Shown: piece by piece, positions 8,500 through 57,661 of the stretch
How positions within the stretch are numbered: position 1 is the first letter of the stretch
Layout: every line of letters begins with the position of its first letter
Assembly: GCA_028712255.1 (NCBI GenBank)
Contig: JAQTQJ010000007.1
Location: 10,425-74,424, forward strand
Origin: Candidatus Omnitrophota bacterium
Lineage (GTDB): Bacteria; Omnitrophota; Gorgyraeia; Gygaellales; Profunditerraquicolaceae
Length of the DNA: 64,000 nucleotides
Direction: 5' to 3'
Made by a program: the position numbers and the translations under genes
Notes under the pieces: generated by a model
What the model was told of the DNA's origin: nothing
The model's database searches: none
What the model saw: the letters and a program-made list of their open reading frames with translations, nothing else

Positions 8500-8508
8500 G
8501 AGGAATAG

Positions 8509-26423: not shown

Positions 26424-26439
26424 ACTAGAAAAGGTGAAA

Positions 26440-35937: not shown

Positions 35938-36711
35938 ATGGCTCAGCTAAAACAAAGCGAATGGCATAAACAATGGGAAATATTCCGGGATGAAGAGTTG
36001 TTTCTTTTTCAGGATTGGATTTATCCGGTAAGACTGGAAGATTTTCAGGGTAAAGATGTCCTGGAGTGTGGATGCGGCGGCGGCCAGCACACATCATTCA
36101 TTGCTCCTTATGCTAAAAGTATTACCGCAGTAGATCTCAATACCGTCGATATTGCAGTCAAGAGAAATAAGGATTTTAAAAATATTGAGTTTATAGAAGC
36201 CGATATTGCTTCAATGGATCTGGGTAAAAAATTCGATATAGTATTTTCTATTGGCGTAGTGCATCATACAGAGAATCCTGATAAGGTAGTAGAAAATCTT
36301 AAGAGGCACGTTTTACCGGGAGGAAGATTGATTCTTTGGGTCTATTCCCAGGAAGGGAATTTTTTAGTATCTAATATTGTTGAGCCACTTAGAAAAGTAT
36401 TTTTGCGGCACCTAAATAAACGAGTACTTATGTTTTGTTCTAAGGTGATTACCTTATTGTTGTATCCTATTGTCTATTCTCTATATCGGTTTCCTTTGCA
36501 CTGGTTGCCTTATTATGAGTATTTTGAGAATTTCCGCAAATTATCTTTGACCAGAAACTGCCTTAATGTTTTTGATAAGCTTAACGCTCCGCAGGTAGAA
36601 TTTATTTCGAAAAAGAGAATAACGGATTGGTTTCCCATGGAAGATTTTAAAAATGTTCATATTTCTTCTTATAAGGGGGTTAGCTGGAGAGGTAGCGCAG
36701 CAAAAATATGA
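35938..36711 (+). CDS. Class I SAM-dependent methyltransferase
   Basis: Motif I 'VLECGCGGGQH'. Confidence 0.7.
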   Translation: MAQLKQSEWHKQWEIFRDEELFLFQDWIYPVRLEDFQGKDVLECGCGGGQHTSFIAPYAKSITAVDLNTVDIAVKRNKDFKNIEFIEADIASMDLGKKFDIVFSIGVVHHTENPDKVVENLKRHVLPGGRLILWVYSQEGNFLVSNIVEPLRKVFLRHLNKRVLMFCSKVITLLLYPIVYSLYRFPLHWLPYYEYFENFRKLSLTRNCLNVFDKLNAPQVEFISKKRITDWFPMEDFKNVHISSYKGVSWRGSAAKI

Positions 36712-38156
36712 AAAAACTAAAGATTCTTCTTCAAGAGCCTTTTGTTCCCAGAGAGGTTACCTATGGTAAGTTTGCAAAAGGCGCTGGTACCAATACATTC
36801 TCTTACGGTATGGCTTGTCTTGCTACTTATATTAAGGAGCGAGGTTATGATGTTTATTTTCTTGATCCTAACCTAAAAGGGATGAACCAAGCAGAATATA
36901 AGGAGTTTTTGGAATTTAATAAATTTGACGTAATTGGTATCGGTTCTACAACATTACAAATAGATTATGCTTTAGAATGTTTTAAGGTTATAAAAAGCAT
37001 TTTTCCACGCACAATTACCGTATTAGGCGGCGTTCACGCTACGCTTATGCCGCAAGAAACCATTTGTGCTAGCGCAGATATAGATTATCTGATATTGGGG
37101 GAAGGTGAAAAGCCTTTTTATCATCTGTTAGAGAAATTGATAAAAGGCGATATTGCTGCTATCAAAAATATTTCCGGGGTTTGTTATAAATCAGAAACTA
37201 ACATTATTTTTAATATGCCGAATGAGGATGATTTTTTGGCTCCGGAAGAGATACCGCTTCCGTATTTTGATATATTTTCAATGCGGGAGTATGTGCCTCA
37301 AGTAACTTTTGCTAAAGCTTTTCCGTCATACACAGTCATTGCTTCTCGGGGGTGTCCGTTTCAGTGCGCCTTTTGTAATGCTAGTGCTACCGTGGGTAAG
37401 AAAGTCAGGTTAAGGCAGCCAGAGTCCTTATTGGAAGAAATACGTATCCTTAAAGAAAAATACGGGGCTAAGGGGATAATGTTCCTAGATTCTACATTTA
37501 CGATCAATAAATCCTGGCTTACGCAATTCTGCCGGGCCTATATTCAATCGGGATTAAATTTACCCTGGGCTGCTAATAGCCGCGTGGATACTGTAGATAA
37601 GGATCTTTTGATGCTTATGAAAGAAGCCGGGTGCTGGAATATTACTTTTGGTATCGAATCAGCAAATCAGAAATCGCTGGATCTTATTGATAAGGGGACG
37701 ACCGTCCAACAGAATACGTCAGCTATTCAAATGGCTTTAAGGATAGGGTTTAATGTTTATACCAGCCATATAATTTGCCTGCCCGGGGAAACAGAGGATG
37801 ATGCCGATAACACAATCCGTTATGCCCGCAGTATGGGCAATCACATGGCGATGTTTTACCTACCCGTGCCTTTTCCTAAGACAAAACTAAATCAGATATG
37901 TAGGGATACCGGGGGGTTAAGGGAAGGGGCTGCCTGGCGAGATTATAACGCATGGGATTATTCGAAACCGGTATATGTAAGCCCGATTCTGGGTAAAGAA
38001 AAAATGTTTGAGCTTTACAAGAAAGCCTATATAAGTTTTTATTCTAATCCTGTTGTCTGGTACCGTAATGCCAAAGATATGGTATTATTGAAGCAAAACC
38101 CCTATCGTTTTTGGCTAGGTTTAAAGTCATTCTTTTCTTTTATCTTTCACAGGTAA
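36708..38156 (+). CDS. B12-binding domain radical SAM enzyme
   Basis: N-terminal B12-binding-like Rossmann ('VIGIGSTT', 'VLGGVHAT'). CxxxCxxC motif 'SRGCPFQCAFCNAS'. Confidence 0.85.
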   Translation: MKKLKILLQEPFVPREVTYGKFAKGAGTNTFSYGMACLATYIKERGYDVYFLDPNLKGMNQAEYKEFLEFNKFDVIGIGSTTLQIDYALECFKVIKSIFPRTITVLGGVHATLMPQETICASADIDYLILGEGEKPFYHLLEKLIKGDIAAIKNISGVCYKSETNIIFNMPNEDDFLAPEEIPLPYFDIFSMREYVPQVTFAKAFPSYTVIASRGCPFQCAFCNASATVGKKVRLRQPESLLEEIRILKEKYGAKGIMFLDSTFTINKSWLTQFCRAYIQSGLNLPWAANSRVDTVDKDLLMLMKEAGCWNITFGIESANQKSLDLIDKGTTVQQNTSAIQMALRIGFNVYTSHIICLPGETEDDADNTIRYARSMGNHMAMFYLPVPFPKTKLNQICRDTGGLREGAAWRDYNAWDYSKPVYVSPILGKEKMFELYKKAYISFYSNPVVWYRNAKDMVLLKQNPYRFWLGLKSFFSFIFHR

Positions 38157-38169: not shown

Positions 38170-39048
38170 ATGATTAGCGTTATCGTTCCGGTGTATAACG
38201 AAGAGAAAGCAATAATAAAGACTCTAAATGAACTCCAGGTGGTTTTAGAAGATGAATTTAAGGATTACGAGATCATTGTTGTTAATGACGGTTCAACCGA
38301 TACAACTTCCGATAGGATTAGGGAATGTGGAATAAAAGATTTGGTTTTGATTAATCATATCGAAAATCTCGGATACGGTAAATCATTGCTCGACGGGATT
38401 TTGATTGCCCGGAATAATTGTATTGGAATCATTGATGGTGATAATTCCTACAACCCAAAAGATATAAAAAAATTATACAGCTATTTTGGCCAATATGATA
38501 TGGTTGTAGGTGCGCGCCAAGGAAAAGAATACAGCCGCGGAGTATTGAAGCGACCTGCAAGATTGTTTTTTAAAATGCTGGCCGAATATGCTTCAGGAAG
38601 GAAAATACCTGACGTGAATTCGGGTCTACGCCTATTTAAAAAAGAGATTGTTTTAGATTTTCAGGGTTCATTGTGTACAGGTTTTTCTTTTACTACGACT
38701 CTGACTCTTATTTTTCTGCTCAATCATTATTTCGTTAAATACGTTTCTATCGAATACGTAAAACGTGCAGGAAAAAGTAAAGTTAATCATATTCGCGATA
38801 CTCTTTTTGTCGGACAGATTATTGTCGAAGCGATTCTTTACTATGATCCTCTCAAACTTTTTTTTCTTTTGGCTTCATGCAATGCCACTTTCGGACTACT
38901 CTTGGGTTTATTTAATTTTTTGATTTTTAAGACCTTCTTTTTTTCGTTGTTAGCAGTTATCTGTATCGCAAGTTTCATACCGGTTTTCTCCCTTGGGTTG
39001 ATTGCAGATCAGCTTAAAAAGGTCTACAATCTAAATAAAAAAACATGA
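38170..39048 (+). CDS. GT2 glycosyltransferase, polyprenyl-phosphate sugar transferase-like (ArnC/GtrB/DPM1-like)
   Basis: 'ISVIVPVYNEE', 'VVNDGSTDTT' and 'DGD', plus C-terminal TM helices. Confidence 0.75.
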   Translation: MISVIVPVYNEEKAIIKTLNELQVVLEDEFKDYEIIVVNDGSTDTTSDRIRECGIKDLVLINHIENLGYGKSLLDGILIARNNCIGIIDGDNSYNPKDIKKLYSYFGQYDMVVGARQGKEYSRGVLKRPARLFFKMLAEYASGRKIPDVNSGLRLFKKEIVLDFQGSLCTGFSFTTTLTLIFLLNHYFVKYVSIEYVKRAGKSKVNHIRDTLFVGQIIVEAILYYDPLKLFFLLASCNATFGLLLGLFNFLIFKTFFFSLLAVICIASFIPVFSLGLIADQLKKVYNLNKKT

Positions 39049-40472
39049 AAATATTGGCTATAATTATACCGCACAGCGATAGACATAGTGGTGATTATTC
39101 AATGCTTAACTTTCCTATAGGCATGGCGTATGTGATTGCTTCGGTGCGGGAGAAGATTAAGGGGGCCAGTATAGTTGTCTCTGATTTTAGCGTTGACCAC
39201 ATAGTCTCAGAAGAGTCGATCAAAGATAGGTTACGAAGCGTAAGCATTGATTTTAAGCCCGATTACGTTATATATGGTTCAATGATTACGAGGTTTTCGT
39301 ATATAAAGTCTCTCAGTCGGATTATAAAAGAGATTTTTCCTTCAGCAAAGCAGGTTTTAGGAGGATCTGCGGCTGGCAGCGGATATAAATTTTTCTTAGA
39401 CGATGGCATAATAGACTTTTTGGTTGCAGGAGAAGGTGAAGAAGCAATGGTGGATATTTTGTCTGATAACTGGCAGAATAATCCTTCTATCATTGGCCCG
39501 GGCGGTAGAATTGTTCCGGAGAAAAGGGCTATAAAAGATATAAACTCCCTACCAATGCCATCGTATAAAGATTTCAATGTGAAAGCTTATATAGATAATA
39601 ACTTTCTGAATACTGGATGGCGGTATATGCCCATTATTACTAGCCGCGGTTGTCCTTTTGCGTGTAATTTTTGTTACCCAAACTTCGGTAATGTCGTACG
39701 TTTACGTTCGGAGGATATGGTAATTGACGAGATAAAATATCTGAATAAGAATTATGGCATAGAGGCGGTATACTTTTGGGATGAGATTCAGTTTCTTAAT
39801 AAAGAGTGGGTAGAAAGTTTTTGCCGTAAGCTTCTGGATAAGAAAATAAATATAAAATGGGTATGCGCAGGCCGCGCGTCACTGTTGCAGAAAAATGATC
39901 TGTCTCTTTTGCGACTGGCAAAGAAGGCCGGTTGCCTTAGAATATCTATAGGTATTGAATCTGGTAATCAGGGTATTCTTGATATGATGAACAAGAATAC
40001 GAAAGTTAAACAGATAGAGGATTCTATAAGGATTATAAGAGCGGCCGGTATAAAAGCTACAGGGACAATTCTTGCCGGGTACCTTGGGGAGACTCGTGAA
40101 ACACTTCATGATACGATTAAGTTCGCCAATAGGAATCTATTGAAGACAGCGTTCTGTTGTCTTATACCTTTGCCCGGATCTAAAATATATGACTATTGCA
40201 TTTCTAAAAATCTGATAAAAGATGAGTACGCGTATCTTAAAAAAGTATCCTTAGAAGGTGGCGATGCATCGCATATTGTTTTTAATCTTACCAAGATGGA
40301 TGATCAGGCATATATTCGTGAGATCGGTATAGCAAATGAGAAAGTCGGTAGGATTAGGCTGAAAAGCATATTTGATTATTATGGATTAGGCATGGGCTTG
40401 ATAAAATACTTTGATAATTTACGCAGGGCTATCCTCATGAGAGTGCAAGGTAGGAGATTTGAGACCATGTGA
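39045..40472 (+). CDS. B12-binding domain radical SAM enzyme
   Basis: CxxxCxxC motif 'TSRGCPFACNFCYP' with an N-terminal B12-binding-like region. Confidence 0.85.
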   Translation: MKILAIIIPHSDRHSGDYSMLNFPIGMAYVIASVREKIKGASIVVSDFSVDHIVSEESIKDRLRSVSIDFKPDYVIYGSMITRFSYIKSLSRIIKEIFPSAKQVLGGSAAGSGYKFFLDDGIIDFLVAGEGEEAMVDILSDNWQNNPSIIGPGGRIVPEKRAIKDINSLPMPSYKDFNVKAYIDNNFLNTGWRYMPIITSRGCPFACNFCYPNFGNVVRLRSEDMVIDEIKYLNKNYGIEAVYFWDEIQFLNKEWVESFCRKLLDKKINIKWVCAGRASLLQKNDLSLLRLAKKAGCLRISIGIESGNQGILDMMNKNTKVKQIEDSIRIIRAAGIKATGTILAGYLGETRETLHDTIKFANRNLLKTAFCCLIPLPGSKIYDYCISKNLIKDEYAYLKKVSLEGGDASHIVFNLTKMDDQAYIREIGIANEKVGRIRLKSIFDYYGLGMGLIKYFDNLRRAILMRVQGRRFETM

Positions 40473-40562: not shown

Positions 40563-41531
40563 GTGAAATTTACCATAGGTTTTGAAAAAGATGATGCAAA
40601 GATATTACACAAATATTGGGACGAGATTATAGAAACGCAGAAATGGTCAGAAGGAAAATTTACTTCCTTATTTGAAGAAAAGTGGTCAAGAAGCAATGGT
40701 TTATCAGCTGTTTCTTTCTCAAGTTGGGGAGGAGCTGCATTGGCTGCGCTTGAATTCTTTGATTTAAAAGGTAAAACAGTTTTGTGTCCGTCTAATACCT
40801 TTATGGCAACGCCACTTAGCGTTATTAAAGCTGGTGGAAATGTTGAATTTGTAGATTGCAATAAGGATGATTTATGTATATCTCTGGATGATCTTAAGGA
40901 GAAAGTAGGGAAATATAGGCCGGCAGCTGTTTGGATTGTTCATATCGGTGGTCATATAGCGTTTCAGATTGAAGCGATAGCTAAGTATTGTAAAGAAAAG
41001 AGAATTATTTTATTAGAAGATTGTGCACATGCGCACGGCGCAGAATGGAATGGTAAAAAGCCTGGACAATGGGGTGACGCTGGCGTTTATTCATTTTATG
41101 CGACAAAGACAATTTCAACCGGAGAAGGCGGAATGCTGGTTACTGATAATAGCGGTTTGATAGAATTTGCAAAAAAATACAGGAATTACGGTAAATTCGA
41201 ATATAAGGTGGAGGGTTTGAATTACAGAATGAATGAATTTATCGCTGCTATTGGATGCGTACAGGCCGATAGGCTTAAAGATATAGTGGCATGGAAGAAT
41301 ACCTATGCAAAAAAACATCTTGATCCAAAATTCTCAAAAAGGCTTGTTTTTCCGGATGGAATGATTTCGGGTTATTATAAATACATAATTTTTGAGCAAG
41401 TAGAAAAATCAACAGGTAAGGTTTATGACATGCCTTGCCATCGTATCATGGGCAAAGATTATGAGCTTCCCAATACGGAATGGGTTACAAAGAATCATTG
41501 GTGCGTACCCATTTATTATAAGGGCGAATAA
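40563..41531 (+). CDS. DegT/DnrJ/EryC1/StrS-family PLP-dependent sugar aminotransferase
   Basis: 'SWGGAALAALEFF', 'CPSNTFMATPL' and the PLP-lysine region 'YATKTISTGEGG'. GTG start with RBS. Confidence 0.8.
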   Translation: MKFTIGFEKDDAKILHKYWDEIIETQKWSEGKFTSLFEEKWSRSNGLSAVSFSSWGGAALAALEFFDLKGKTVLCPSNTFMATPLSVIKAGGNVEFVDCNKDDLCISLDDLKEKVGKYRPAAVWIVHIGGHIAFQIEAIAKYCKEKRIILLEDCAHAHGAEWNGKKPGQWGDAGVYSFYATKTISTGEGGMLVTDNSGLIEFAKKYRNYGKFEYKVEGLNYRMNEFIAAIGCVQADRLKDIVAWKNTYAKKHLDPKFSKRLVFPDGMISGYYKYIIFEQVEKSTGKVYDMPCHRIMGKDYELPNTEWVTKNHWCVPIYYKGE

Positions 41532-41552
41532 TATTAAATAGGAGGGATAGTT

Positions 41553-42497
41553 ATGAAAGTTTTAGTGACAGGTGGTTCCGGTTTTATTGGTTCACATGTG
41601 GTAGATAAACTAAGAGATAAAGGTGTAGAGGTAAGGGTTTATGATGGTATTATGCCTTCTTTTCGTAAGGATATTGAGTTTTACCAGGGGAGTATCCTTG
41701 ATAAAACTTCTCTTGGTTTTGCTCTTAACGGAGTGGATGCGATATTTCATTTGGCTGCGGTTGCAGACGTAAAGGATGTTTATAACAATCCGTATGACTC
41801 AGAGGCAATTAATGTTCGCGGCACGATTAATGTATTGGAAGCCGCGCGTAATACTAATGTTAGAAGGATTGTTTATGGAAGTACTACTTGGGTTTATAGT
41901 GAAGCTTCTTCTAATAATGTTGATGAATCAACCCCGCTTCATGCGCCTACACACCTTTATACTGCTACAAAGTTAACCGGAGAATATTACTGCCAATCTT
42001 ACAGTAAGCTTTATGGTATGGAAGTAACCATTCTCCGTTATGGCATTCCATATGGCCCTCGTGCAAGAGACGGTGCGGTCATCCCGATTTTTGTAAGGAA
42101 GGCTATTAATGGAGAGCCACTTACTATTGCAGGTGATGGCTCACAATTTAGGAAATTTATATATGTTGAAGATTTAGCTGAAGGTAATGTTTTGGGCCTA
42201 AAAAATATTGCCAAGAATAAAATCTACAATTTAGACGGTAAGGAAAAGGTTACGATTAAACAGATAGCTGAGACTATTAAAAAGATTCTAGGCAATGTAA
42301 AGATTGAATATACTCCTGCTAGGCCGGGAGATTTTTCCGGTAAAGAGGTCTCTAGTGAATTGGCGGCAGAAGAGTTAAGCTGGGAACCAAAAATTAGCTT
42401 TGAAGAAGGGGTAGGTAGATATATAAAATGGTATAAAGAGCGAGATGAGAAACGTAAAGCTGATTGGGATCAAATTGACGGAATATTGAAAAAATAA
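41553..42497 (+). CDS. NAD-dependent epimerase/dehydratase (PseB/UDP-sugar 4,6-dehydratase candidate)
   Basis: 'VLVTGGSGFIGSHVV' and YxxxK 'YTATK'. RBS 'aggaggg' upstream. Confidence 0.75.
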   Translation: MKVLVTGGSGFIGSHVVDKLRDKGVEVRVYDGIMPSFRKDIEFYQGSILDKTSLGFALNGVDAIFHLAAVADVKDVYNNPYDSEAINVRGTINVLEAARNTNVRRIVYGSTTWVYSEASSNNVDESTPLHAPTHLYTATKLTGEYYCQSYSKLYGMEVTILRYGIPYGPRARDGAVIPIFVRKAINGEPLTIAGDGSQFRKFIYVEDLAEGNVLGLKNIAKNKIYNLDGKEKVTIKQIAETIKKILGNVKIEYTPARPGDFSGKEVSSELAAEELSWEPKISFEEGVGRYIKWYKERDEKRKADWDQIDGILKK

Positions 42498-42506
42498 GAG
42501 GACAAA

Positions 42507-43181
42507 ATGGCAAAGCATAAAGTCTTAATTATCGCTGCCCACATGGATGATGAAGTACTTGGGTGTGGTGGAATAATCTGTAAGCATAAAGCTGCAGGGG
42601 ATAAGGTTACTGTAATTTTTGTTGCCCATCGGATTTACAATCATTGTTTTAATAAAGAAGAGAATGGGGTTGAGGAAAAGCATGCTTTAAAAGCAAAGAA
42701 AGCGTTAGGATATGATAACGTGGTATTTTTAGGTTTAAATGATGAAAGGCTTGATGCCTGCCTGCAGGATCTTATTATACCCATGGAAAAGCATGTTAAA
42801 GCCATAAAACCTGATATTGTTTATTTACCCTTTAGACAGGATAATAATCAGGATCATCGTGCTGTTTTTGATGCTGCCAGAGTTGCCCTAAGACCTGCTG
42901 TAACTCCTTTTATAAAAGAAATTAATATGTATGAAGTTTCTTCTTCTACGGAGCAATCCCCTCCGTTAATTGAAACTGCATTCTTGCCCAATTTTTATGT
43001 AAATATTAGCCATTTTATCAACAAGAAGATAAAAGGGTTGGCATGTTATGAAACAGAAAGCAGATTGTATCCTCATCCTAGGTCAGAAAAAGCTCTCAAA
43101 GCTTTGGCTCAGAAAAGAGGTACGGAAATCGGCTATGATTATGCTGAAGCTTTTGTTAGTATAAGGAGGAAATGGGAATGA
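42507..43181 (+). CDS. PIG-L/LmbE-family N-acetylglucosaminyl deacetylase
   Basis: 'VLIIAAHMDDEVLGCGG' is the PIG-L signature. Confidence 0.8.
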   Translation: MAKHKVLIIAAHMDDEVLGCGGIICKHKAAGDKVTVIFVAHRIYNHCFNKEENGVEEKHALKAKKALGYDNVVFLGLNDERLDACLQDLIIPMEKHVKAIKPDIVYLPFRQDNNQDHRAVFDAARVALRPAVTPFIKEINMYEVSSSTEQSPPLIETAFLPNFYVNISHFINKKIKGLACYETESRLYPHPRSEKALKALAQKRGTEIGYDYAEAFVSIRRKWE

Positions 43182-43801
43182 TACTGGGGATAACTCCTGC
43201 TCGTGGTGGTAGCAAAGGCATTCCAAGAAAAAATATAAAAATGATTGCCGATAAACCTTTACTTGCCTGGACGATTGAGGCAGCGAAAAAATCAAAACTT
43301 ATAGATAAATATGTTGTGTCAACAGAAGATAAAGAAATAGCCGAAGTAGCTCAAAGGTTCGGGGCAGAGGTTCTTTTACGTCCTGTTGAACTTGCTACAG
43401 ATGAAGCTTCAACTGAAAGCGTTTTAAAACACGCCGTGGATTCTCTTAAATGCGATACCTTAGTTCTTTTACAGGCAACATCCCCAATAAGAAAATCCGG
43501 ATTAATTGATGAATGTGTTAAGGAGTTTATTGATGGCGGTTACGACTCTTTAGCTACAGGTTTTATGTGTAAATATAAGGAATATGGTAAAAATCATTTA
43601 CGCAGGCAGGATATTGAAGGATTTTTTTACGATGATGGCAACGTTTATGTGATGAAGTCTGATTTCGTAAAAAGTGGCGACCGTTATGGTAAAAAAATCG
43701 CAAGGAAGTTTATTAGCCGTTTTGAGAATGTAGAAATTGATGATGAGTTTGATTTTTGGCTAGCGGAGAAAATATTACAAGAGCAAAAGAATGAGGATTA
43801 A
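43172..43801 (+). CDS. Acylneuraminate cytidylyltransferase family (CMP-nonulosonic acid synthetase, NeuA/PseF/LegF-like)
   Basis: 'ILGITPARGGSKGIPRKN' N-terminal CTP-transferase motif. Confidence 0.8.
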   Translation: MGMILGITPARGGSKGIPRKNIKMIADKPLLAWTIEAAKKSKLIDKYVVSTEDKEIAEVAQRFGAEVLLRPVELATDEASTESVLKHAVDSLKCDTLVLLQATSPIRKSGLIDECVKEFIDGGYDSLATGFMCKYKEYGKNHLRRQDIEGFFYDDGNVYVMKSDFVKSGDRYGKKIARKFISRFENVEIDDEFDFWLAEKILQEQKNED

Positions 43802-44852
43802 TAAAGACCAGATCTGTATTTCCGAACGGAAAGATTTAAAGTTTAATTATCTCCGCGGCCGCGGGCATTTGGTTGCTTACCTGTTGAATCGTTGGCAGTG
43901 GTATAATCTTCCCCGATTTCATCATGTTTCTAAATTTCCTATTCATCTGGACATAGAGACATCGGCTTTATGTAATATGCAGTGCCCGATGTGTTTTACT
44001 ACTACTGGTGATTTTAGGCAGAAGGTAGACAAAGGATTCATGGATTTTTCGTTATTTAAGAAAATTATCGATGAGGCGGTTAGTTATAAGATATATTCCA
44101 TACGCCTAAGCCACCGTGGTGAGCCGTTTATTAATCCGCAGATAGTTGATTTTATCTCTTATGCTAAAAGAGCCGGAGTAAAAGAGGTATCATCTTTGAG
44201 TAATATTCTAGCCTTGACTCCTGAACTTTTCGAAAAATCAATGAAGGCTGGGCTCGATTGGTTGACCATTTCTTTTGACGGCTTAAAAGAAAATTATGAA
44301 AAAATAAGAAAGCCGGCTGTTTTTGAAGAGTCGGTGCAGAAGATAAAAGAATATAAGCGTATAAAAGAGGCTGCCAAATCAAGTAAACCGGTTATAAAAA
44401 TACAATCAGTTTGGCCGGCAATTAAGGACTGCGCGGATGAATACATAGACTTATTTGATCCATATGTCGATGCCATTACTTCTAACCCTCTTATTGATTA
44501 TTTGCATAATGATGAACTTGAAAAAATAGAGTATTGGGAGAATTTTGATTGCCCGGTACCTTATCAAAGGTTAACTATTCTTTTTGATGGTTTGGTTCCG
44601 TATTGTCATAACGATGAATTCAATACATTTATTATTGGTGATATAAAGCTGGATAAGGTTTACAATATTTGGAACGGACTTCATATGACAAAAGTACGCC
44701 AAAGCCACAGAGAACATAAGGGAGTAGAATTATTAAGTGCCTGTAAACGTTGTTTTTTACCTCGGAAGGTCGAACCTATTGTGGAAAATTTTGGTGGTAA
44801 GAAGGTTATTGTTGAGAAATATACAAAACGGATTGAAGAGATTGGTAAATAA
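43791..44852 (+). CDS. Radical SAM enzyme
   Basis: 'ETSALCNMQCPMC' CxxxCxxC motif. The C-terminal 'CKRC' may be an auxiliary cluster. Confidence 0.7.
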   Translation: MRINKDQICISERKDLKFNYLRGRGHLVAYLLNRWQWYNLPRFHHVSKFPIHLDIETSALCNMQCPMCFTTTGDFRQKVDKGFMDFSLFKKIIDEAVSYKIYSIRLSHRGEPFINPQIVDFISYAKRAGVKEVSSLSNILALTPELFEKSMKAGLDWLTISFDGLKENYEKIRKPAVFEESVQKIKEYKRIKEAAKSSKPVIKIQSVWPAIKDCADEYIDLFDPYVDAITSNPLIDYLHNDELEKIEYWENFDCPVPYQRLTILFDGLVPYCHNDEFNTFIIGDIKLDKVYNIWNGLHMTKVRQSHREHKGVELLSACKRCFLPRKVEPIVENFGGKKVIVEKYTKRIEEIGK

Positions 44853-44855
44853 CAG

Positions 44856-45572
44856 ATGATTGTTACTATTCATCAGCCGGAACATCTGCCTTGGCTGGGG
44901 TTTTTTCACAAGCTCAATATGGCTGAAACTTACGTTGTCCTTGATAACGTTCAGTATCGCCGCAGGTATTTTCAGAACAGAAATAAAATTCGCACCAAAA
45001 ATGGCTGGAAATGGATAGGTATTTCACTTATAAAGGAGGCAAGGGATAATTTACTGATAAAAGATGTAAAGATTTTTAAGGAAGATATTGAGTGGAGGTC
45101 AGATAACCTTAAGACAGTTCATCAGAGTTATTCTAAAGCTAAATATTTTGATTTTTTTTGGCCTGAATTTCAGAAAATTTACTCTTCAGATTATGATCAT
45201 CTAATTGATTTAAATATTGCTTTCATAAAGCTTATCTTAAAGAAACTGGGGATAGTAAGGGAAGTTATACTTGCTTCTCAATTGAATGTAGATGGAGAAA
45301 AAGGGGATTTGATATTTAATATCACTAAAACATTGAACGCCAAAACTTATGTTTCAGGAATTTCCGGTAAGGATTATCTCGATATGAAAAAGTTCAGTGA
45401 AAATGGAATAAAAGTTATAATTCAGGAGTTTCACCATCCAGTTTATTCTCAGTTACTTACTCCTTTTTTACCATGCATGTCGGTGATTGATCTTTTATTT
45501 AATTATGGTCCTGGGAGTCTGGATATTATCAATGGCATCGGTGTCCCAATTTTGGAGGAAGTTTTTTTATAA
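44856..45572 (+). CDS. WbqC-like family protein
   Basis: N-terminal 'IVTIHQPEHLPWLGFFHKL...VVLDNVQYRRRYFQNRNKI' is characteristic of the WbqC-like family. Confidence 0.7.
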   Translation: MIVTIHQPEHLPWLGFFHKLNMAETYVVLDNVQYRRRYFQNRNKIRTKNGWKWIGISLIKEARDNLLIKDVKIFKEDIEWRSDNLKTVHQSYSKAKYFDFFWPEFQKIYSSDYDHLIDLNIAFIKLILKKLGIVREVILASQLNVDGEKGDLIFNITKTLNAKTYVSGISGKDYLDMKKFSENGIKVIIQEFHHPVYSQLLTPFLPCMSVIDLLFNYGPGSLDIINGIGVPILEEVFL

Positions 45573-46459
45573 TGAAAAAAGCTACGTATGAGACTTTAAT
45601 CATCGCGGAGATAGGGGAATGTTTTAATGGTGATTTTACTATAGCCAAGGAATTGATGCGGGAGGCGAAAAAATCCGGCTGTGATATAGTTAAATTTCAG
45701 ACTCTTGATTATGAAAATATTTCCTTAAGCGACCCGGAAAAAGAATGGTTTTTAAAGATTGCATTAAACCCAGAAAAAATAAGAAAGCTGATTGCTTATG
45801 CAAGAAAAATAAGGATTCGCATACTTTTTAGCCCGGAAAATATAAAGACCTGTCAGTGGCTTCTGGACGCAGGCTTAGAAGACGTAAAGATTGCAAGTAG
45901 CTCGATAACTGACGTAGAGTTAATTAGTTTTGTAAATAAGAATTTCAGATGCGTCTTTATTTCAACGGGAATGGCTTCTTTGAAAGAAGTAAGAGAAATT
46001 GTGCATAATCTGAAGAATGTCTATGAGTTATATATAATGCATTGCGTCTCTGAATATCCAACCGGTCCGCTGCTTAAGAGGAGAGGATTATGTGCGCTTG
46101 CTCCGGAGGATGTCCATTTAAATATGATGAAGATTCTAATGCAGATATTCCCTCATTACAAGATAGGATATTCCGATCATACTGCCGGAATATTTGCTCC
46201 TTTAGTGGCTGTTGCCGCTGGAGCTGAGGTTATAGAAAAACATATTACCTTAGATAGAAAAGTTCCACTTCGTAATTATAATACTGGCAAAGAATACCTC
46301 GGTACGGATCATGTATTGTCGCTTGAACCATTCGAGCTCAAGGAGATGGTTTGTAAAATTCGCGAAATAGAACACATGCTAGGTAAGTGGAAGTGGGAAC
46401 GTTCTGAGGGCGAAAAATTGTTAAGAGGATTCTTACGGAAAAGGTTTTCGGGTGTATAA
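45572..46459 (+). CDS. NeuB-family nonulosonic acid synthase (N-acetylneuraminate/pseudaminate synthase-like), lacking the C-terminal SAF domain
   Basis: 'LIIAEIGECFNGDFTIAKELMREAKKSGCDIVKFQT' is the NeuB TIM-barrel N-terminus. At 295 aa it is shorter than typical NeuB/PseI (~340 aa). Confidence 0.75.
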   Translation: MKKATYETLIIAEIGECFNGDFTIAKELMREAKKSGCDIVKFQTLDYENISLSDPEKEWFLKIALNPEKIRKLIAYARKIRIRILFSPENIKTCQWLLDAGLEDVKIASSSITDVELISFVNKNFRCVFISTGMASLKEVREIVHNLKNVYELYIMHCVSEYPTGPLLKRRGLCALAPEDVHLNMMKILMQIFPHYKIGYSDHTAGIFAPLVAVAAGAEVIEKHITLDRKVPLRNYNTGKEYLGTDHVLSLEPFELKEMVCKIREIEHMLGKWKWERSEGEKLLRGFLRKRFSGV

Positions 46460-47474
46460 GGCGAGAATTGTTATAAAAACTAAAGGAAGTCATTCTCAGG
46501 GCATGGGGGATCTTATTTCTTCTCTTGATTTGGGGAGAGAATTAAGAAAGCTGAACAAAAACATATTTTTCTTGGTAAATAAAGATAAGATAGCCTCAAA
46601 TTTTATTCGGAATAATGGTTTTCCGGTAAAAGAAATCGATAGTTTGAGCGATCTTGGGTTATTTTTAAAGGAAAAGTTTTTCGATATTTCTATTTTGAAC
46701 CAGCTTAATACAGAGAGCAGAGAAGTAATTCTGTTTAAGAAGCATTCAAGGAGATTGGTAACGATTGAAGATGTTGGAAAATCTAGCCTATTAGCTGATC
46801 TGAGGTTCAATATTCTTTATCCTCAGCCTAAGGCCATAACAGAATTGAGTTTCTTGCCTTTATCTAAAGTTTTTCAAGAAAAACATACTTTACTTAAACA
46901 GATAAAGAAAAAAGCTAAGAACATCCTTGTTTTGCAGGGGGGCAGTGATACCTATGGTTTTACACCTAAAATTATTAAATCACTAAATTCGGTTGATCCG
47001 CAAATAAAAATTAATGTTGTACTTGGACCATATTTTTCTCATTTTAAAGAATTAGATATCGTTCTACGTAATTCTTCTAGGGAGTTCGATATTATTTCTA
47101 ATTGCAGTGATTTATCTTTTCTTATGACGGAAGCTGACATTGCTATTAGTGCTGCAGGCAATACTCTTTTTGAATTAGCCTGTCTTGGCGTGCCGACTAT
47201 GGTAGTTTGTGCAGAAAAATTTGAGGAGATTACGGCAAAGATATTAGAAGAGAAAGGTTTTTGTATTAATTTAGGCTATGGTTCTGATATAAAGGAAAAA
47301 GATATTTTTGCCACTTTGGATAGATTAACAGCTAATTATAAGTTACGTTTTTCCATGAGCAAGAGAGGGAAGGAATTGATAGATGGAGCAGGTATCAAGC
47401 GTATTGTAAATCGTATTGAAAAATTGATTGATAGTATTGACAATAATGAGAAGAGAGGGAAACAAAATGCTTAG
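46452..47474 (+). CDS. PseG-like UDP-sugar hydrolase (GT28 C-terminal-like)
   Basis: N-terminal 'RIVIKTKGSHSQGMGDLISSLDL' and C-terminal 'ISAAGNTLFELACLGVPTMVV'. GTG start overlaps the upstream stop. Confidence 0.65.
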   Translation: MYKARIVIKTKGSHSQGMGDLISSLDLGRELRKLNKNIFFLVNKDKIASNFIRNNGFPVKEIDSLSDLGLFLKEKFFDISILNQLNTESREVILFKKHSRRLVTIEDVGKSSLLADLRFNILYPQPKAITELSFLPLSKVFQEKHTLLKQIKKKAKNILVLQGGSDTYGFTPKIIKSLNSVDPQIKINVVLGPYFSHFKELDIVLRNSSREFDIISNCSDLSFLMTEADIAISAAGNTLFELACLGVPTMVVCAEKFEEITAKILEEKGFCINLGYGSDIKEKDIFATLDRLTANYKLRFSMSKRGKELIDGAGIKRIVNRIEKLIDSIDNNEKRGKQNA

Positions 47475-48474
47475 TAATTCTAAACTTCGAAGTCTCATCA
47501 AGAATTTTTCTGAACTATATTGGCTCAAGCCCATGGATATTATTTGGGATGCTGTTACTGCTTACCATGTACAAGGATGGGTAAAAAAGAGCGATGTTTT
47601 AATGGATTTGGGTTGTGGTGATGGATATTTTAGTGCTTTGATGTTTGGTGCAAAAATACCATTAACCCATGATAGGTTTCTTAACGTGGTTGCTTCTAAT
47701 CAAAAAATAAAAACCAACCAATCTGGTGATATATACAGAAATCAACAGCAGCTTTTAAAATTTGAAAAGGCACCATGGAGAAGAGTAGATTTCGGTTTGG
47801 AACTAAAACCCCATCATATAAGAGTTGCCGATTCGCTAGGTATTTATAAAAAAATTATCAAAGGGATTTTTGAAGAAACAAGTTTGAATGAGAGAAGCAT
47901 AGATAAAGTATATTCTATCTTTGCTTTTTATTGGGGCAGAAATCTGGATAGGCAAATTAACGAAATATATCGTATCTTGAGAGAAGATGGTGAATTTATA
48001 GTTACCTTGCCTAGCGAGCATCTTTCTGGTATGCATATATGTAAAAGGTTGGCAGATGAAGAGAAGAGTAAAAAAGTAAGGTTATATCTTGAAAATCTTG
48101 ATGGGGGCAGGAAGGATTTAACGACCCGTCACTCTAGAAGTGAAAAAGGATGGAAGGATTGGTTTGAGTATCATAACTTTAAAGTTTTAAATATGATACC
48201 AGTCGTTAATAAGGTTATGTTTTTACATCAAGATATTTCACAGAGAGTATTCTTGCCGATTTTGTTTAAAATGTCCAATTCGGAAGATTTTAAGAGATTA
48301 CGTTCTATAGTCAAAAAATATGTTTGTGAAAAGCTATATCCGGATCTGTTAAGCGAGCTGTTAAAATTTGAGTCGGATCATGAGGTGGAACACGCGTATT
48401 ATCTTTTTAGAGTTAAAAAGATAGCAAAAAATAGCGCTGCTAAATTTAACAGAGAATGTCAAAAGCCAGATTAA
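47467..48474 (+). CDS. Class I SAM-dependent methyltransferase
   Basis: Motif I 'VLMDLGCGDGYF'. ATG 47467 is chosen to avoid a 47-nt overlap with the upstream gene. Confidence 0.6.
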   Translation: MLSNSKLRSLIKNFSELYWLKPMDIIWDAVTAYHVQGWVKKSDVLMDLGCGDGYFSALMFGAKIPLTHDRFLNVVASNQKIKTNQSGDIYRNQQQLLKFEKAPWRRVDFGLELKPHHIRVADSLGIYKKIIKGIFEETSLNERSIDKVYSIFAFYWGRNLDRQINEIYRILREDGEFIVTLPSEHLSGMHICKRLADEEKSKKVRLYLENLDGGRKDLTTRHSRSEKGWKDWFEYHNFKVLNMIPVVNKVMFLHQDISQRVFLPILFKMSNSEDFKRLRSIVKKYVCEKLYPDLLSELLKFESDHEVEHAYYLFRVKKIAKNSAAKFNRECQKPD

Positions 48475-50000
48475 TAGGAAAAAACATAAGTTTTATCGTA
48501 TTGAGTAGGGCCGTCTTTATGCTGATATCATTTATGCTCTTTCCTTTCATAGTGGCGCATGTTGGAAAAGAGGTATACGGTGTTTACTTAATTGTTATAA
48601 GTGTTACTGGCTACTTCGGTGTGATTGATTTTGGCATGATGTCAGCGCTCATGAAATATGTATCCGAATATCATGGTAAAGGCGACTTTAAGGGTATTAA
48701 CCGGATTATTAATGCGTCGTTTTCGTTCTATGTCGTTGCTGGCGTTGTTATTTCAGTATTATTATTTTTGAGTTCAAAGTATTTTACTTATTTTTTCAAG
48801 ATTGATCCCGCAAATATTCAGGTTATGAGGAATCTGTTTATTGTAGCATCGGTATCCTCTTTATTCATATGGCCGATGAGTACCTTTCGCGGGGCTATTC
48901 AAGGATTAAATATGTGGGGAACCGATGTAGTGGTTAGTATTTCTAGCCAGATCTTGCTGGCGTTAGCTACTTTTTTCATGCTTAGTAAAGGATATGGCAT
49001 CGTTCGACTTTTTATCGCTATGCAGGTGCTGACTGTTATTGGTAATTTTGTTCTTTATTGCATGGTGCGCAAGCGTATTGGTTTACGGATACTTTTTCCA
49101 TATACGGAGATACGCACGTTCAAATTTATATTTAATTTCAGTTTTTTTATGTTCCTTAGTTCATTAATAATGATATTTATTTCTCAAGTACATAATATCA
49201 TTATTGGTTATTTTATCTCTATGTCCGCAGTGTCTATATATGCCGTTGCTTATAACTTACAAAATTATTTTCGTGTTATAAATTCAACGATAGGTGGGCC
49301 TTCTTGGATAGTTACCTCAGAAATGGAAGGCGCATATGATTATGAGCGCCAAAAGCAGATTTTACTCAAAGGCACGAAGTTTATGTCCGCCGTATTTTTG
49401 CCTATTATAATAATTGTTTTTGTCTTTATTGAGCCGTTCATTTATTTTTGGATGGGCCCGGCCTTTGGCGATAGTATTATTCCTGCGAGGATAATCATAG
49501 TATGTTGGCTTTTTAACGGTACTTCCGAACTGGCTACTGGGTTACTTTCCGCTAAAGGTATTGTGCGTCAGCCACTCATGATTCTGTTGGTTGCTGCGGT
49601 TGTGAATCTGTTGGTTAGTATTACTTTTATTAAGGCGTTAGGCATAATTGCTGTAGCTTTGGGGATGGCTATTTCAATTATTTTTATAGCTTTCCCCTTG
49701 TTTTTACGATTGGCGTTAACTACCTTAAAGATATCTTTTGCAGAATATTTTAATAGAAGTATAAAAGTAAATTTATTACTATATCTGTTTGTGGTTGTAT
49801 TGTCCACGGTAGTCTTGTTTTGTTTCCATCCAATTAATTTTGCTTTTACTCTTTTTGAAATGTCATTGGTATATATTATTTCGTTAATTTTTTATTATTT
49901 TTGGCTACTAAAGCCTATTGAAAGGGAAGATATAAAAAAAGTTATTGGTTTTGATGCGCTTTATCGGCAAATTACCCTAGTAAAAGGGATATTTGGATAA
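48456..50000 (+). CDS. wzx: Wzx-type polysaccharide flippase (MOP superfamily)
   Basis: 514-aa multi-TM protein with a typical Wzx N-terminus 'LSRAVFMLISFMLFPFIVAHVGKEVYGVY'. Confidence 0.7.
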   Translation: MSKARLIGKNISFIVLSRAVFMLISFMLFPFIVAHVGKEVYGVYLIVISVTGYFGVIDFGMMSALMKYVSEYHGKGDFKGINRIINASFSFYVVAGVVISVLLFLSSKYFTYFFKIDPANIQVMRNLFIVASVSSLFIWPMSTFRGAIQGLNMWGTDVVVSISSQILLALATFFMLSKGYGIVRLFIAMQVLTVIGNFVLYCMVRKRIGLRILFPYTEIRTFKFIFNFSFFMFLSSLIMIFISQVHNIIIGYFISMSAVSIYAVAYNLQNYFRVINSTIGGPSWIVTSEMEGAYDYERQKQILLKGTKFMSAVFLPIIIIVFVFIEPFIYFWMGPAFGDSIIPARIIIVCWLFNGTSELATGLLSAKGIVRQPLMILLVAAVVNLLVSITFIKALGIIAVALGMAISIIFIAFPLFLRLALTTLKISFAEYFNRSIKVNLLLYLFVVVLSTVVLFCFHPINFAFTLFEMSLVYIISLIFYYFWLLKPIEREDIKKVIGFDALYRQITLVKGIFG

Positions 50001-50018
50001 ATTTTGTAGGAGTCTGAA

Positions 50019-51785
50019 ATGGGTTCGGGTCGACAATTTTTAGCTACAACGGGAATTTCTGAATTTTGGAATACCGATGAAGCAATTCTTCTTCTAGGGC
50101 CATGGTGTCTTATGGGGGAGAAAAGCAGGAAATTGATTGATACCAAGACTTATCCTATTGTTCCTTCTCCGTGGAAGCCTGCCAAAAAGGTAAAGAATGC
50201 GGCAGATTTGTGCCATGATATTTATGAAAACGTGCTACCTGAATTGTCTGAACAATTAAATTTAGTCCATGACGTCGGTTATTCGGAGAAATATTGGAGA
50301 GTGCTTATTGGGCCATGGCTGACTCAGTTTATAGAGGTGCTTTATGAGAGATGTGTCAGAGTAGATAATGCATTTGCGCTTTTTCCGGATACCTATACTT
50401 ACATTTTGCCCGGGTCTCTTTCTAAGTCATTGTCTTTAGAAACATATGATTCTATTTCTGCTCAGTGCGTGGAAGATGATTTTTATAATTTAAAATTATT
50501 TAGTCAGATAATACGCAATCTTTATCCTGAAAAGGCCGTAGAAAAGAATATTACTATATCTATTTCCGATAGGAGGAGCATTCAAAATACTAAATTTATT
50601 AAAAAGGCTTTTTATGGCATAAAAAAAATAAGAAACATATTCAAGCATCCATCTATAATTTTAAGTGATATGTATCATTTTGATTTTATGCAGATATTAT
50701 CTTTAGAATCAAGATTGTATTTGAATCCAGTTATCTTTGAGAATTTTGATAATGCGATTAATGTGGTGAGTTCTAGCGGATATTCGGAAGAAAAAAGAAA
50801 GAAAATAAGATTTGAAAAAGTATCTGGTAAATTTCCTAGTTTATTGCGACAATTATTGCCTATTGCAATACCAAAGTCTTATATCGAGAATTTTAATGAA
50901 TATAAAAAAGGAGTAAAGCCTAAAAATATAAAAGCTATTGGTTCGGCAGTGGGTTGGTATCATAACGAAAATTTTAAATTTTTTGCTGCAGAAGCTGCTT
51001 TGACAGATGCGAAGCTTTTAAGTTTTCAGCAGGGAGGTGGTTATGGTATGGCCCTGACTTGCCCTGTTGTAAATACCGGAGTGGAGAATAGTATATTTTA
51101 TGCTTGGGGATGTAATTCAAGGATTAATAAAACCAGAACATTACCGAGCCCGCACCTTTCCAAATTAGTAGATAGTCATTTCACCCTATCTGATAAAATC
51201 ATATTTGTTGGAACAAGCGTGCCTAAGTATCAATATAGATTTAATTCTACTCTATTTCCTGATGACATGACGAAATATTTTGAAGATAAGCGGATTTTTT
51301 TAAAATCTTTACCAGAACGTCTTAAGGATAGGATTTTTTATCGTCCGTACCATTATGAATATGGTTGGGGAGAAAAGGAATTTATTAAGAATATTTTACC
51401 TAATGTTATTTTTTTGTCGAAAGGTAATTTGACTAAATATATGCAGCAGGCAAAATTAGTCGTAATCGATCATCCGCATACTTCTTTTTTGGAAGCACTT
51501 ACCATTAATGTTCCTTCTGTTTTTTATTGGGATCACAAGGTCCACCTAATGCTACCCGAAGCGGAGGAATATTTTGATTTGTTGAGGATTGTGGGAATTT
51601 TGTATCAAGATCCTGTTAGCGCCGCGAAAAAAGTAAATGAAATCATTGATAATCCCATGGATTGGTGGTTAAAAAAAGAAGTTCAAAACGCAAGATCAAG
51701 ATTCTGTGAATATTTTGCTTGTGCACGAGAAAACTGGCTAGATACATGGACCTGCGAACTTAACAATATAGTAACACAGGGATGA
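50019..51785 (+). CDS. Large hypothetical protein (possible GT-B-like transferase)
   Basis: 588-aa soluble ORF. C-terminal 'LEALTINVPSVFYWDH' is GT-B-like. No firm family assignment. Confidence 0.35.
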   Translation: MGSGRQFLATTGISEFWNTDEAILLLGPWCLMGEKSRKLIDTKTYPIVPSPWKPAKKVKNAADLCHDIYENVLPELSEQLNLVHDVGYSEKYWRVLIGPWLTQFIEVLYERCVRVDNAFALFPDTYTYILPGSLSKSLSLETYDSISAQCVEDDFYNLKLFSQIIRNLYPEKAVEKNITISISDRRSIQNTKFIKKAFYGIKKIRNIFKHPSIILSDMYHFDFMQILSLESRLYLNPVIFENFDNAINVVSSSGYSEEKRKKIRFEKVSGKFPSLLRQLLPIAIPKSYIENFNEYKKGVKPKNIKAIGSAVGWYHNENFKFFAAEAALTDAKLLSFQQGGGYGMALTCPVVNTGVENSIFYAWGCNSRINKTRTLPSPHLSKLVDSHFTLSDKIIFVGTSVPKYQYRFNSTLFPDDMTKYFEDKRIFLKSLPERLKDRIFYRPYHYEYGWGEKEFIKNILPNVIFLSKGNLTKYMQQAKLVVIDHPHTSFLEALTINVPSVFYWDHKVHLMLPEAEEYFDLLRIVGILYQDPVSAAKKVNEIIDNPMDWWLKKEVQNARSRFCEYFACARENWLDTWTCELNNIVTQG

Positions 51786-55875: not shown

Positions 55876-55882
55876 TTCTGAT

Positions 55883-57644: not shown

Positions 57645-57661
57645 TTATTAGGGAAATTACT

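Follow-up and report, generated by a model that had tools for sequence, protein, structure and literature searches.

Nonulosonic acids (NulOs) are key surface determinants, and the routes to them that are known, which lead to neuraminic acid (Neu), legionaminic acid (Leg), pseudaminic acid (Pse) and a few epimers, all come, to our knowledge, from pathogens. In the butirosin pathway, BtrN is a radical S-adenosylmethionine (SAM) 2-deoxy-scyllo-inosamine dehydrogenase; that pathway also uses a deacetylase of the PIG-L family (BtrD) and a GT-B enzyme. Deacetylation followed by aminoacyl transfer has a precedent in VimE and VimA of the Wbp/Vim pathway (PMC7468200). A survey of 13,941 NulO synthases in UniProt found that 30% are without the SAF domain, with a concentration in environmental 'group I' branches, and in the NeuB of Neisseria meningitidis the SAF domain contributes substrate-binding residues (PMC8208679). 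One member of the LIC12162 family is a transferase encoded beside neuABC (PMC6679464). Here we describe a stretch of 64,000 nucleotides, referred to below as the window, which is part of a contig from a metagenome-assembled genome (MAG) of a Candidatus Omnitrophota bacterium (GenBank assembly GCA_028712255.1, contig JAQTQJ010000007.1, 81.5 kb in the NCBI record). We read the gene block at window positions 40563-51785 as a self-contained module for the biosynthesis, export and transfer of a cytidine monophosphate (CMP)-activated NulO by a route that differs from those to Neu, Leg and Pse; with its putative steps included, this reading has in our estimate a probability of about 0.5. The more general claim, that a divergent CMP-NulO pathway is encoded, is quite probable. 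We class the module as one of nonulosonic-acid type because condensation with phosphoenolpyruvate (PEP) of the NeuB type, CMP activation, and export and transfer are all encoded in it. An initial annotation of this DNA had proposed a 5,7-diamino pathway of Pse or Leg type. The NulO character of that proposal held, but the matches fell short of the Pse and Leg equivalogs, and the 6-deoxygenation step is not encoded in the window.

The nine open reading frames (ORFs) at 40563-48474 are all on the forward strand and mostly overlap, by 4-11 bp, and the products of all nine gave significant domain matches in Pfam or NCBIfam. Their coordinates agreed with those of the initial annotation, and so did the presence of DegT, CMP-NulO synthetase, NeuB, PIG-L, WbqC, radical SAM and methyltransferase genes. 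The module is longer than this segment, in that a Wzx flippase and a LIC12162-family transferase follow and carry its end to 51785. To collect related loci, we scanned a single genome for each GTDB species, which returned 80 loci (L-numbers below), and compared the window proteins with these by tblastn and blastp; the features and their recurrence are given in Table 1.

Table 1. Genes of the block at 40563-51785. Cut-offs that were passed stand in brackets after the score. The last two columns give the number of loci that carry the component, among loci with a NeuB at least 50% identical to that of the window (17 non-Firmicute, 6 Firmicute). SDR, short-chain dehydrogenase/reductase; PLP, pyridoxal phosphate.
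Product	Position	Strand	Domain match	Non-Firmicute loci	Firmicute loci
DegT-family PLP aminotransferase, short, 322 aa	40563..41531	+	PF01041 204.7 bits	17/17	6/6
GalE-like extended SDR, 314 aa, epimerase or oxidoreductase	41553..42497	+	PF01370 186.5 bits	11/17	0-1/6
PIG-L/LmbE-family de-N-acetylase, 224 aa	42507..43181	+	PF02585 76.7 bits (28.2)	17/17	0/6
CMP-nonulosonate-type cytidylyltransferase, short, 209 aa	43172..43801	+	PF02348 92.4 bits	10/17 (others: a different one)	6/6
BtrN-like twitch radical SAM enzyme, 353 aa	43791..44852	+	PF04055 53 bits; SPASM PF13186 37 bits	17/17	6/6 (radical SAM/SPASM)
WbqC-family protein, 238 aa	44856..45572	+	PF08889 231.6 bits (21.3)	16/17	0/6
SAF-less NeuB-family PEP-condensing synthase, 295 aa	45572..46459	+	PF03102 179.2 bits (22.1)		
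PseG-related GT-B protein, 340 aa	46452..47474	+	TIGR03590 104 bits; PF04101 27.5 bits	17/17	6/6
Class I SAM methyltransferase, 335 aa (ATG 47467)	47467..48474	+	PF08241 32.7 bits; PF13489 29.4 bits		
Wzx/MOP-family flippase, 514 aa	48456..50000	+	PF01554 66.5 bits; PF01943 64.8 bits; PF13440 53.5 bits		
LIC12162-family transferase, 588 aa, candidate NulO transferase	50019..51785	+	TIGR04331 394.1 bits (225), positions 1-585 of 585		

Because the same gene set recurs in the 17 non-Firmicute loci, which are spread over several phyla, the arrangement is not a product of chance. The hosts are Omnitrophota, Nitrospirota, Planctomycetota (including an anammox genus), Syntrophobacterales, another delta-proteobacterial MAG, Desulfovibrio, Acidobacteriota, SAR202 (Chloroflexota) and an archaeon of the Hydrothermarchaeota; the six Firmicute loci are from Lachnospiraceae and Selenomonadaceae, and their short cytidylyltransferase is 62-69% identical to that of the window. 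The conserved block thus recurs in many uncultured, mostly anaerobic lineages, and its association of a BtrN-like radical SAM enzyme with PIG-L and WbqC is part of its interest. Two of the carriers are cultured: Desulfovibrio sp. 7SRBS1 (L022) and the Lachnospiraceae isolate B79_4_CH_BP (L024). Three kinds of variant locus bear on the readings weighed below. In L087 (4744-10769), the order DegT-SDR-PIG-L-short cytidylyltransferase-WbqC is followed by a NeuB of 345 aa that contains SAF, and a carbamoyltransferase and a formyltransferase are also present. In L088 (3325-11215), PIG-L, WbqC, a 293-aa NeuB and the GT-B protein are followed by a hexapeptide acyltransferase. In SAR11 loci (L031 8015-15350, Pelagibacteraceae; also L035 and L037), a short DegT, 62-63% identical, accompanies a 268-aa SAF-less NeuB, two cytidylyltransferases, an adh_short SDR and an enzyme resembling 3-dehydroquinate synthase or iron-dependent alcohol dehydrogenase (DHQS/Fe-ADH); these three loci hold no GT-B hydrolase, PIG-L, WbqC or radical SAM gene. 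The methyltransferase is weakly conserved (21-28% identity in 6 related loci). Homologues of the flippase (38-57%) occur in L002/L008 and L009, and those of the LIC12162-family transferase (30-47%), for whose product PF27859 was also recorded, in 11 related loci.

The NeuB homologue (100% identical to MDD5108770.1) has 295 residues and no SAF domain, as had been annotated. The absence is real, because the gene overlaps its successor, homologues have the same length and tblastn gave no SAF match. Its stop codon at 46459 lies beyond the next start at 46452, an overlap of 8 bp that leaves no room for SAF, and the product of the gene on its 3' side matches the PseG model from residue 5. More than 120 homologues (63-72% identity) are 288-313 aa long with PF03102 as their sole domain, and the last 85 residues of 40-odd relatives that contain SAF, used as tblastn queries, detected no SAF core anywhere in the window. 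A SAF domain mis-called through a downstream frameshift, which the initial annotation had named as a possible objection, was thereby looked for and rejected. What did not survive is the suggestion that a SAF-less NeuB is in itself out of the ordinary: the trait is clade-wide and already documented (PMC8208679; PDB 6NCS), and so is not novel. From its sequence, the protein is predicted to be of the metal-dependent, PEP-condensing type, with metal-binding His and catalytic Glu retained and the TIM barrel complete; the invariant residues E13, H203, E222 and H224 lie within motifs (IAEIG, SDH and EKH) common to NeuB and PseI. The clade differs from the canonical enzymes in having GECFNG in place of G-x-N-H-x-G and two insertions of its own, 11-12 aa each, where confidence in the structural model is lower, and which may substitute for SAF. 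The AlphaFold2 (AF2) model (mean per-residue confidence, pLDDT, 88.5) aligned with NeuB structures at template-modelling (TM) scores of 0.79-0.83. The best match in both sequence and structure was 6NCS from Leptospira borgpetersenii (TM 0.83/0.85, 28% identity), which is itself SAF-less, 290 aa long and annotated as a sialic acid synthetase. In a neighbour-joining tree of 85 relatives, all NeuB proteins of 265-310 aa formed one clade, with the sole exception of the divergent, 282-aa L035_10805. This SAF-less clade, to which the window protein belongs, stands apart from the loci that pass the PseI cut-off (L061 and L072) or the NeuB/LegI cut-off (L039, L042 and L043).

None of the module proteins reached a Pse or Leg equivalog. 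We observed scores of 195.3 bits for NeuB against TIGR03569 (Neu/Leg; cut-off 399.65) and 153.9 against PseI (340.25), so that NeuB is nearer to the Neu/Leg model; 128.8 for the cytidylyltransferase against PseF (205.7); 133.2 for DegT against PseC (TIGR03588; 423.5) and 125 against LegC (420); and 61.7 for the SDR against the PseB-type dehydratase TIGR03589 (407.75) and 142.5 against LegB (475). The control loci behaved as expected of true members, L061 and L072 passing PseI (493 and 510 bits) and L042, L039 and L043 passing TIGR03569. The SDR had been annotated as a candidate dehydratase, an assignment that its active site contradicts. Its best PDB match was Thermotoga GalE 4ZRM (158 bits), with UDP-xylose synthase (UXS) at 141 bits; GSTTWVYSE aligns with SSTGGAIYGE of GalE and STSEVYGD of UXS, with Trp at the Glu position, and YxxxK lies at 136-140. 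There is no acid/base pair, neither the TDE of LegB nor anything like STDE of RmlB/LegB-type dehydratases or STDK of PseB, and all 12 orthologues (58-87% identity) keep GST[TVS]WVY. This catalytic-motif alignment led us to reject both a 4,6-dehydratase and a UXS-type decarboxylase. In Nitrospirota and Lachnospiraceae, the module lacks this gene. Neither motif, TDE or STDK, was present in any of the seven extended SDRs of the window, and because no dehydratase-motif SDR occurs there, the defining 6-deoxygenation step of the Pse and Leg pathways is not encoded in it. Family scans of the window ORFs of at least 150 aa found no acetyltransferase of any kind, GNAT and hexapeptide types included, which bears out the annotated lack of a PseH-type enzyme, and the window gave no match to Epimerase_2 (PF02350), the hydrolysing 2-epimerase of NeuC/LegG type. 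Having, like its relatives, neither a 4,6-dehydratase nor an N-acetyltransferase, the module therefore cannot run the known Leg or Pse chemistry.

An ordinary Leg or Pse pathway would survive these observations if its dehydratase and N-acetyltransferase were encoded elsewhere in the genome and the extra genes decorated a finished 5,7-diamino-3,5,7,9-tetradeoxy sugar. The best NCBIfam matches are indeed PseC/LegC, LegB, PseF, PseG and NeuB/PseI, the gene set and order resemble those of Pse clusters, the window covers 64 kb of the 81.5-kb contig, and a hexapeptide acyltransferase follows the corresponding genes in L088. We nevertheless think this explanation unlikely. All matches lie 2-4 fold below equivalog cut-offs that control loci pass; the acid/base pair is missing from the module SDR and from every orthologue; 64 kb of glycan genes hold neither a dehydratase-motif SDR nor an acetyltransferase; the NeuB clade is separate from loci passing the PseI or NeuB_NnaB cut-offs; and the module moves across phyla as a unit without a dehydratase.

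The short cytidylyltransferase and the short DegT deserve separate comment. The PF02348 match of the former covers profile positions 2-125 of 217, and the protein aligns over its full length (7-204 with 8-225) with the CMP-Neu5Ac synthetase of N. meningitidis, 1EYR, with the RRQD motif retained and the dimerisation insert shortened. It scored 82-90 bits against CMP-Neu5Ac synthetases in the PDB, versus at most 37 bits against KdsB, and is 62-74% identical in 16 related loci. The second cytidylyltransferase of the window (57662-58402) was considered as the real CMP-NulO synthetase, with the short one truncated or not of NulO type; it was rejected for this role, being a KdsB, while the short protein aligns in full with a CMP-Neu5Ac synthetase. 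Because the second enzyme passes the curated KdsB cut-offs, the short one is predicted to be the only NulO activator in the window. DegT likewise matches its family profile in part (PF01041, 9-248 of 360) and falls some 50-60 aa short of the typical length; the PLP lysine is retained, within YATKTISTGEGG. Its best PDB matches (82-96 bits) were scyllo-inosose/2-deoxy-scyllo-inosose aminotransferases, PglE-like enzymes, a perosamine synthase and KdnA. Across 11 related loci its identity is 61-76%, and no other partner is so well conserved: proteins 62-73% identical to it stand beside NeuBs of 265-290 aa in Pelagibacteraceae, Elusimicrobia and others, without the rest of the module.

The product of the gene that follows NeuB had been annotated as a PseG-like hydrolase. 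Its relationship to PseG was confirmed (104.1 bits to TIGR03590 over positions 2-270 of 280), but the score is below the cut-off of 153.55 and a key residue has changed: the motif QGMGD has Asp where GxGH of PseG has a His that we take to be catalytic. The Asp is conserved in a sub-clade of 8 loci, which also has a conserved His six residues upstream of GMGD; in a sister sub-clade (23 sequences) with the same genomic context, GxGH is intact. No PDB sequence match was obtained, and the protein may be either a nucleoside diphosphate (NDP)-sugar hydrolase or a glycosyltransferase. Its N-terminus reads KTKGSHSQGMGD. NCBI lists it as a 'glycosyltransferase' of 323 aa (MDD5108771.1) that starts 17 codons downstream of GTG 46452. 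The longer form, from GTG 46452, is more likely, because the NCBI start would drop 46452-46502 and with it the N-terminal motif KTKGxH..QG, conserved in eight homologues.

The radical SAM enzyme has CNMQCPMC at residues 61-68 (C61, C65 and C68) and exactly four further conserved Cys, C254-x17-C272-x45-C318-x2-C321, which are invariant in the family. Among solved structures, a profile of ten family members matched BtrN far better (E 4.8e-12) than any other, DesII and the SPASM peptide maturases included. The twitch domain aligns with that of BtrN, and the four auxiliary-cluster Cys align with four Cys of BtrN. A CxxxCxxC motif together with a BtrN-homologous C-terminal four-Cys auxiliary [4Fe-4S] domain places the enzyme in the twitch subclass, and on this alignment we regard it as BtrN-like, with a twitch domain that would hold a single auxiliary cluster. 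A distinct family of proteins, 570-600 aa long, was seen in 7 related loci, always near a SAF-less NeuB: a cytidylyltransferase-like N-domain is fused to a radical SAM/SPASM domain, with 40-68% identity over the full length (L001 4183-5904; L002 774-2501; L012 2474-4264; L017 8201-9970; L019 7585-9291; L023 5237-7015; L029 1734-3494). Its hosts are Nitrospirota, Syntrophobacterales, Omnitrophota and Firmicutes. Such a fusion is absent from this window, and the radical SAM part is of another lineage than the module enzyme (about 21% identical), so that the link the fusions make between radical SAM chemistry and cytidylyl substrates is an indirect one. Apparent fusions of 610-630 aa in L043 were disregarded as probable artefacts of naive start-codon choice.

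These fusions lend indirect support to a reading in which the modifying enzymes act after the synthase rather than before it. In that case an NDP-N-acetylhexosamine (NDP-HexNAc) would be turned by the GT-B protein, NeuB and cytidylyltransferase into an ordinary NulO or a Kdn-like acid, and the radical SAM enzyme, DegT, PIG-L, WbqC and methyltransferase would then modify the free or CMP-linked C9 acid, for instance through oxidation and amination of the side chain in the manner of KdnB and KdnA. Such an order would suit the conservation of cytidylyltransferase-like/radical SAM fusions in 7 loci, the 11-nt overlap between the cytidylyltransferase and radical SAM genes and their adjacency in L001, L006, L012 and L013, the place of KdnA among the top PDB matches of DegT, the Firmicute loci that have NeuB, cytidylyltransferase, GT-B, DegT and radical SAM genes without SDR, PIG-L or WbqC, and the Pelagibacter loci that combine a short DegT with a DHQS/Fe-ADH-like enzyme. 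Yet the similarity to KdnA (85.7 bits) is no better than that to many NDP-sugar aminotransferases, and the fusion lineage is missing from the window. We are aware of no earlier example of a radical SAM enzyme acting on a CMP-NulO, and our search found no literature that joins nonulosonic acids with radical SAM enzymes. On balance, we consider this order of events improbable.

PIG-L and WbqC behave as a coupled accessory pair, because both occur in the non-Firmicute loci and both are missing from the Firmicute loci. WbqC adjoins or lies near PIG-L in 16 of the 17 non-Firmicute loci, and also in L087 and L088, and across loci the two are together present or together absent with the one exception of L004. 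There (8266-9982), the place of WbqC directly upstream of NeuB is taken by a PylC-like ATP-grasp ligase together with a PHP phosphoesterase. PIG-L carries the AHMDDE metal motif and a downstream DH (the His/Asp/His zinc motif); its best NCBIfam match was BshB1 (67 bits; cut-off 182), and it reached neither the BshB1 nor the BshB2 equivalog. WbqC had no NCBIfam match and no PDB sequence match. A Foldseek comparison of its AF2 model (pLDDT 93.4) with the PDB gave no match at E <= 1e-3; ATP sulfurylase, a cytidylyltransferase and a USP-family protein that binds adenosine monophosphate in its structure were the only matches, and weak ones (TM about 0.3). The literature that we searched treats the WbqC family as uncharacterised, and no characterisation of WbqC or of this module turned up. 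The N-acyl exchange suggested by the initial annotation remains a reasonable idea, in view of the co-occurrence of the pair (16/17), the ATP-grasp replacement in L004 and the VimE/VimA precedent (PMC7468200).

A use of PEP with some other aldehyde (pentose, heptose or sugar phosphate), giving a 7-, 8- or 10-carbon ulosonic acid or a metabolite unrelated to glycans, seems very unlikely to us: the changed substrate-side motif, the two insertions and the loss of a SAF domain that adds substrate-binding residues in N. meningitidis NeuB (PMC8208679), the hint of a phosphorylated substrate from the PHP phosphoesterase beside NeuB in L004, and the lack of any NDP-sugar hydrolase in the Pelagibacter versions are outweighed by a cytidylyltransferase of NulO rather than Kdo type, flanking LIC12162 transferase and Wzx genes, a closest solved structure (6NCS) annotated as a sialic acid synthetase, and the same module in L087 with a SAF-containing NeuB.

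For the self-contained CMP-NulO module that we favour, the following order of steps can be suggested, and we do so tentatively, rating this order as less likely than not. An NDP-HexNAc, optionally 4-epimerised by the GalE-like SDR, would be oxidised at a ring hydroxyl by the BtrN-like enzyme, independently of oxygen and nicotinamide adenine dinucleotide (NAD), and the resulting keto sugar would be transaminated by the short DegT, following the logic of BtrN and BtrS and introducing a second nitrogen. With these two enzymes in the role of the 4,6-dehydratase/aminotransferase pair, C6, which becomes C9 of the product, would keep its oxygen. PIG-L might then strip off the original N-acetyl group, and WbqC, or the ATP-grasp enzyme in L004, might place an acyl or aminoacyl group on a free amine by the logic of VimE and VimA, standing where PseH or LegH is missing. 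The GT-B protein would free the hexosamine for NeuB, which would condense it with PEP; the short cytidylyltransferase would form the CMP-sugar, the methyltransferase would tailor the sugar, and the LIC12162 transferase and Wzx would install and export it.

Several points weigh against this scheme. The individual steps are inferred, and the data do not constrain their order. The similarity to BtrN is modest (E 1e-5 with a single sequence, 5e-12 with a profile), and epimerisation or diol dehydration are other reactions that the radical SAM enzyme might catalyse; nor is this enzyme obligatory, because L088 has no radical SAM gene within 8 kb. WbqC shows no detectable signature of ATP binding or acyl transfer, by sequence or structure comparison. 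The Pelagibacter pairs of DegT and NeuB, which have no GT-B or radical SAM gene, suggest that DegT may act on a substrate that is not a nucleotide sugar. The GT-B protein, given Asp for the His of GxGH, may be a transferase rather than a hydrolase, and the genome may hold a 4,6-dehydratase beyond the 64-kb window.

Should the scheme be correct, its most far-reaching form would be a new, oxygen- and NAD-independent way to introduce nitrogen into a sialic-acid-like sugar by a BtrN-type dehydrogenase and a short DegT, an undescribed class of NulO, and in WbqC the founder of a new family of enzymes that re-acylate the amine which PIG-L sets free. We regard this as doubtful in the whole. The product might then be a triamino acid, for instance, or a 5,7-diamino acid in which the 9-hydroxyl is retained, and with the block present in Omnitrophota, Nitrospirota, Planctomycetota, Desulfobacterota, Acidobacteriota, SAR202 and an archaeon, it could be a major sugar, so far unrecognised, on the surface of anaerobic microbes in the environment. 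The block is a recurrent, phylum-spanning alternative in which every enzyme falls outside the curated Pse and Leg equivalogs, and the twitch radical SAM enzyme and WbqC are components without a known role in sugar-acid biosynthesis. To solve the module would be to explain the products of SAF-less NeuBs, to provide a genetic handle on unusual sialic-acid-like sugars of the environment, and to give a function to the WbqC family, for which our search returned more than 4,600 matches.

As to the setting of the block, Pfam scans indicated that the whole window is one very long surface-glycan supercluster, with SDRs, methyltransferases, six B12-binding radical SAM genes, thiamine-diphosphate enzymes, GT2s, Wzy, Wzx and more. 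Its 59 ORFs of at least 150 aa are on the forward strand except for three antisense shadows, the GC content is about 37% and the GC skew is positive throughout. Promoter and terminator scans of the region were no better than shuffled sequences, or empty, and an Rfam scan fared likewise. Downstream of the module lies a second sugar-acid block (53332-58402), composed of an HpcH/HpaI aldolase, an HMGL-like protein (585 aa, with a faintly MptE-like C-terminus), an LdpA-like Fe-S protein, an HAD hydrolase and KdsB; in L002/L008 and L009, too, the module is followed by an HMGL/LdpA pair (49-55% identity). The B12-binding (class B) radical SAM genes are at 3679-5169, 36708-38156, 39045-40472, 51795-53300, 60359-61813 and 61881-63380, with several more in related loci, and as a set they suggest that the glycan is extensively tailored, by radical methylation or otherwise. 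A glutamine-dependent, Asn-synthase-like amidotransferase is encoded at 33070-34845; its family is that of the uronamide-forming enzymes WbpS and WbqG. The thiamine-diphosphate enzymes (1580-3675, 6661-8499 and 26416-28307; E1 alpha/beta-like pairs and an acetolactate-synthase-like protein) are compatible with the synthesis of branched-chain or acyl-branched sugars.

In comparison with the Pse pathway of Campylobacter and Helicobacter (PseB, PseC, PseH, PseG, PseI and PseF), the module likewise unites a DegT, a GT-B homologue of PseG, a NeuB-family synthase and a CTP_transf_3 protein in one operon, and Pse models were the best NCBIfam matches for three of its genes. In contrast to that pathway, it has no PseB-type dehydratase, PseH GNAT or SAF domain, its GxGH His is replaced by Asp, its scores lie far below the equivalogs, and it adds PIG-L, WbqC, the twitch radical SAM enzyme and the GalE-like SDR. 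Its NeuB resembles that of the Leg pathway (LegB, C, H, G, I and F; Sps in Bacillus subtilis) in scoring higher on TIGR03569 (195 bits) than on PseI (154), and B. subtilis SpsE (1VLI) was its second-best PDB profile match, but the window has no LegB motif, LegH or NeuC/LegG-type epimerase, and the synthase falls in a separate, SAF-less clade. The SAF-less NeuBs typified by 6NCS and by the 'group I environmental' branch (PMC8208679), none of which has been biochemically characterised in the literature that could be searched, share the single-domain TIM barrel of about 290 aa; 6NCS is nevertheless distant, at 28% identity, and is without the GECFNG motif and the two insertions. The pairing of a de-N-acetylase with a second enzyme that re-acylates the sugar amine recalls Wbp/Vim N-acyl exchange and the logic of MshB/MshC and BshB, although VimE is a CE4 enzyme and VimA is GNAT-like, whereas the module has PIG-L and WbqC, the latter with no known activity or fold match. 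The combination of a twitch radical SAM enzyme and a DegT aminotransferase in one operon is shared with BtrN and BtrS of butirosin 2-deoxystreptamine synthesis; overall identity is low, the N-terminal half aligns poorly, and the context here is that of NulOs and glycans and not of aminocyclitols. In the aggregate, since every Pse and Leg equivalog test failed that control loci pass, the block is not, by these sequence criteria, a Pse or Leg cluster, and it is best described by the families of which it is a member: NeuB, CTP_transf_3, PIG-L, WbqC, twitch radical SAM and LIC12162.

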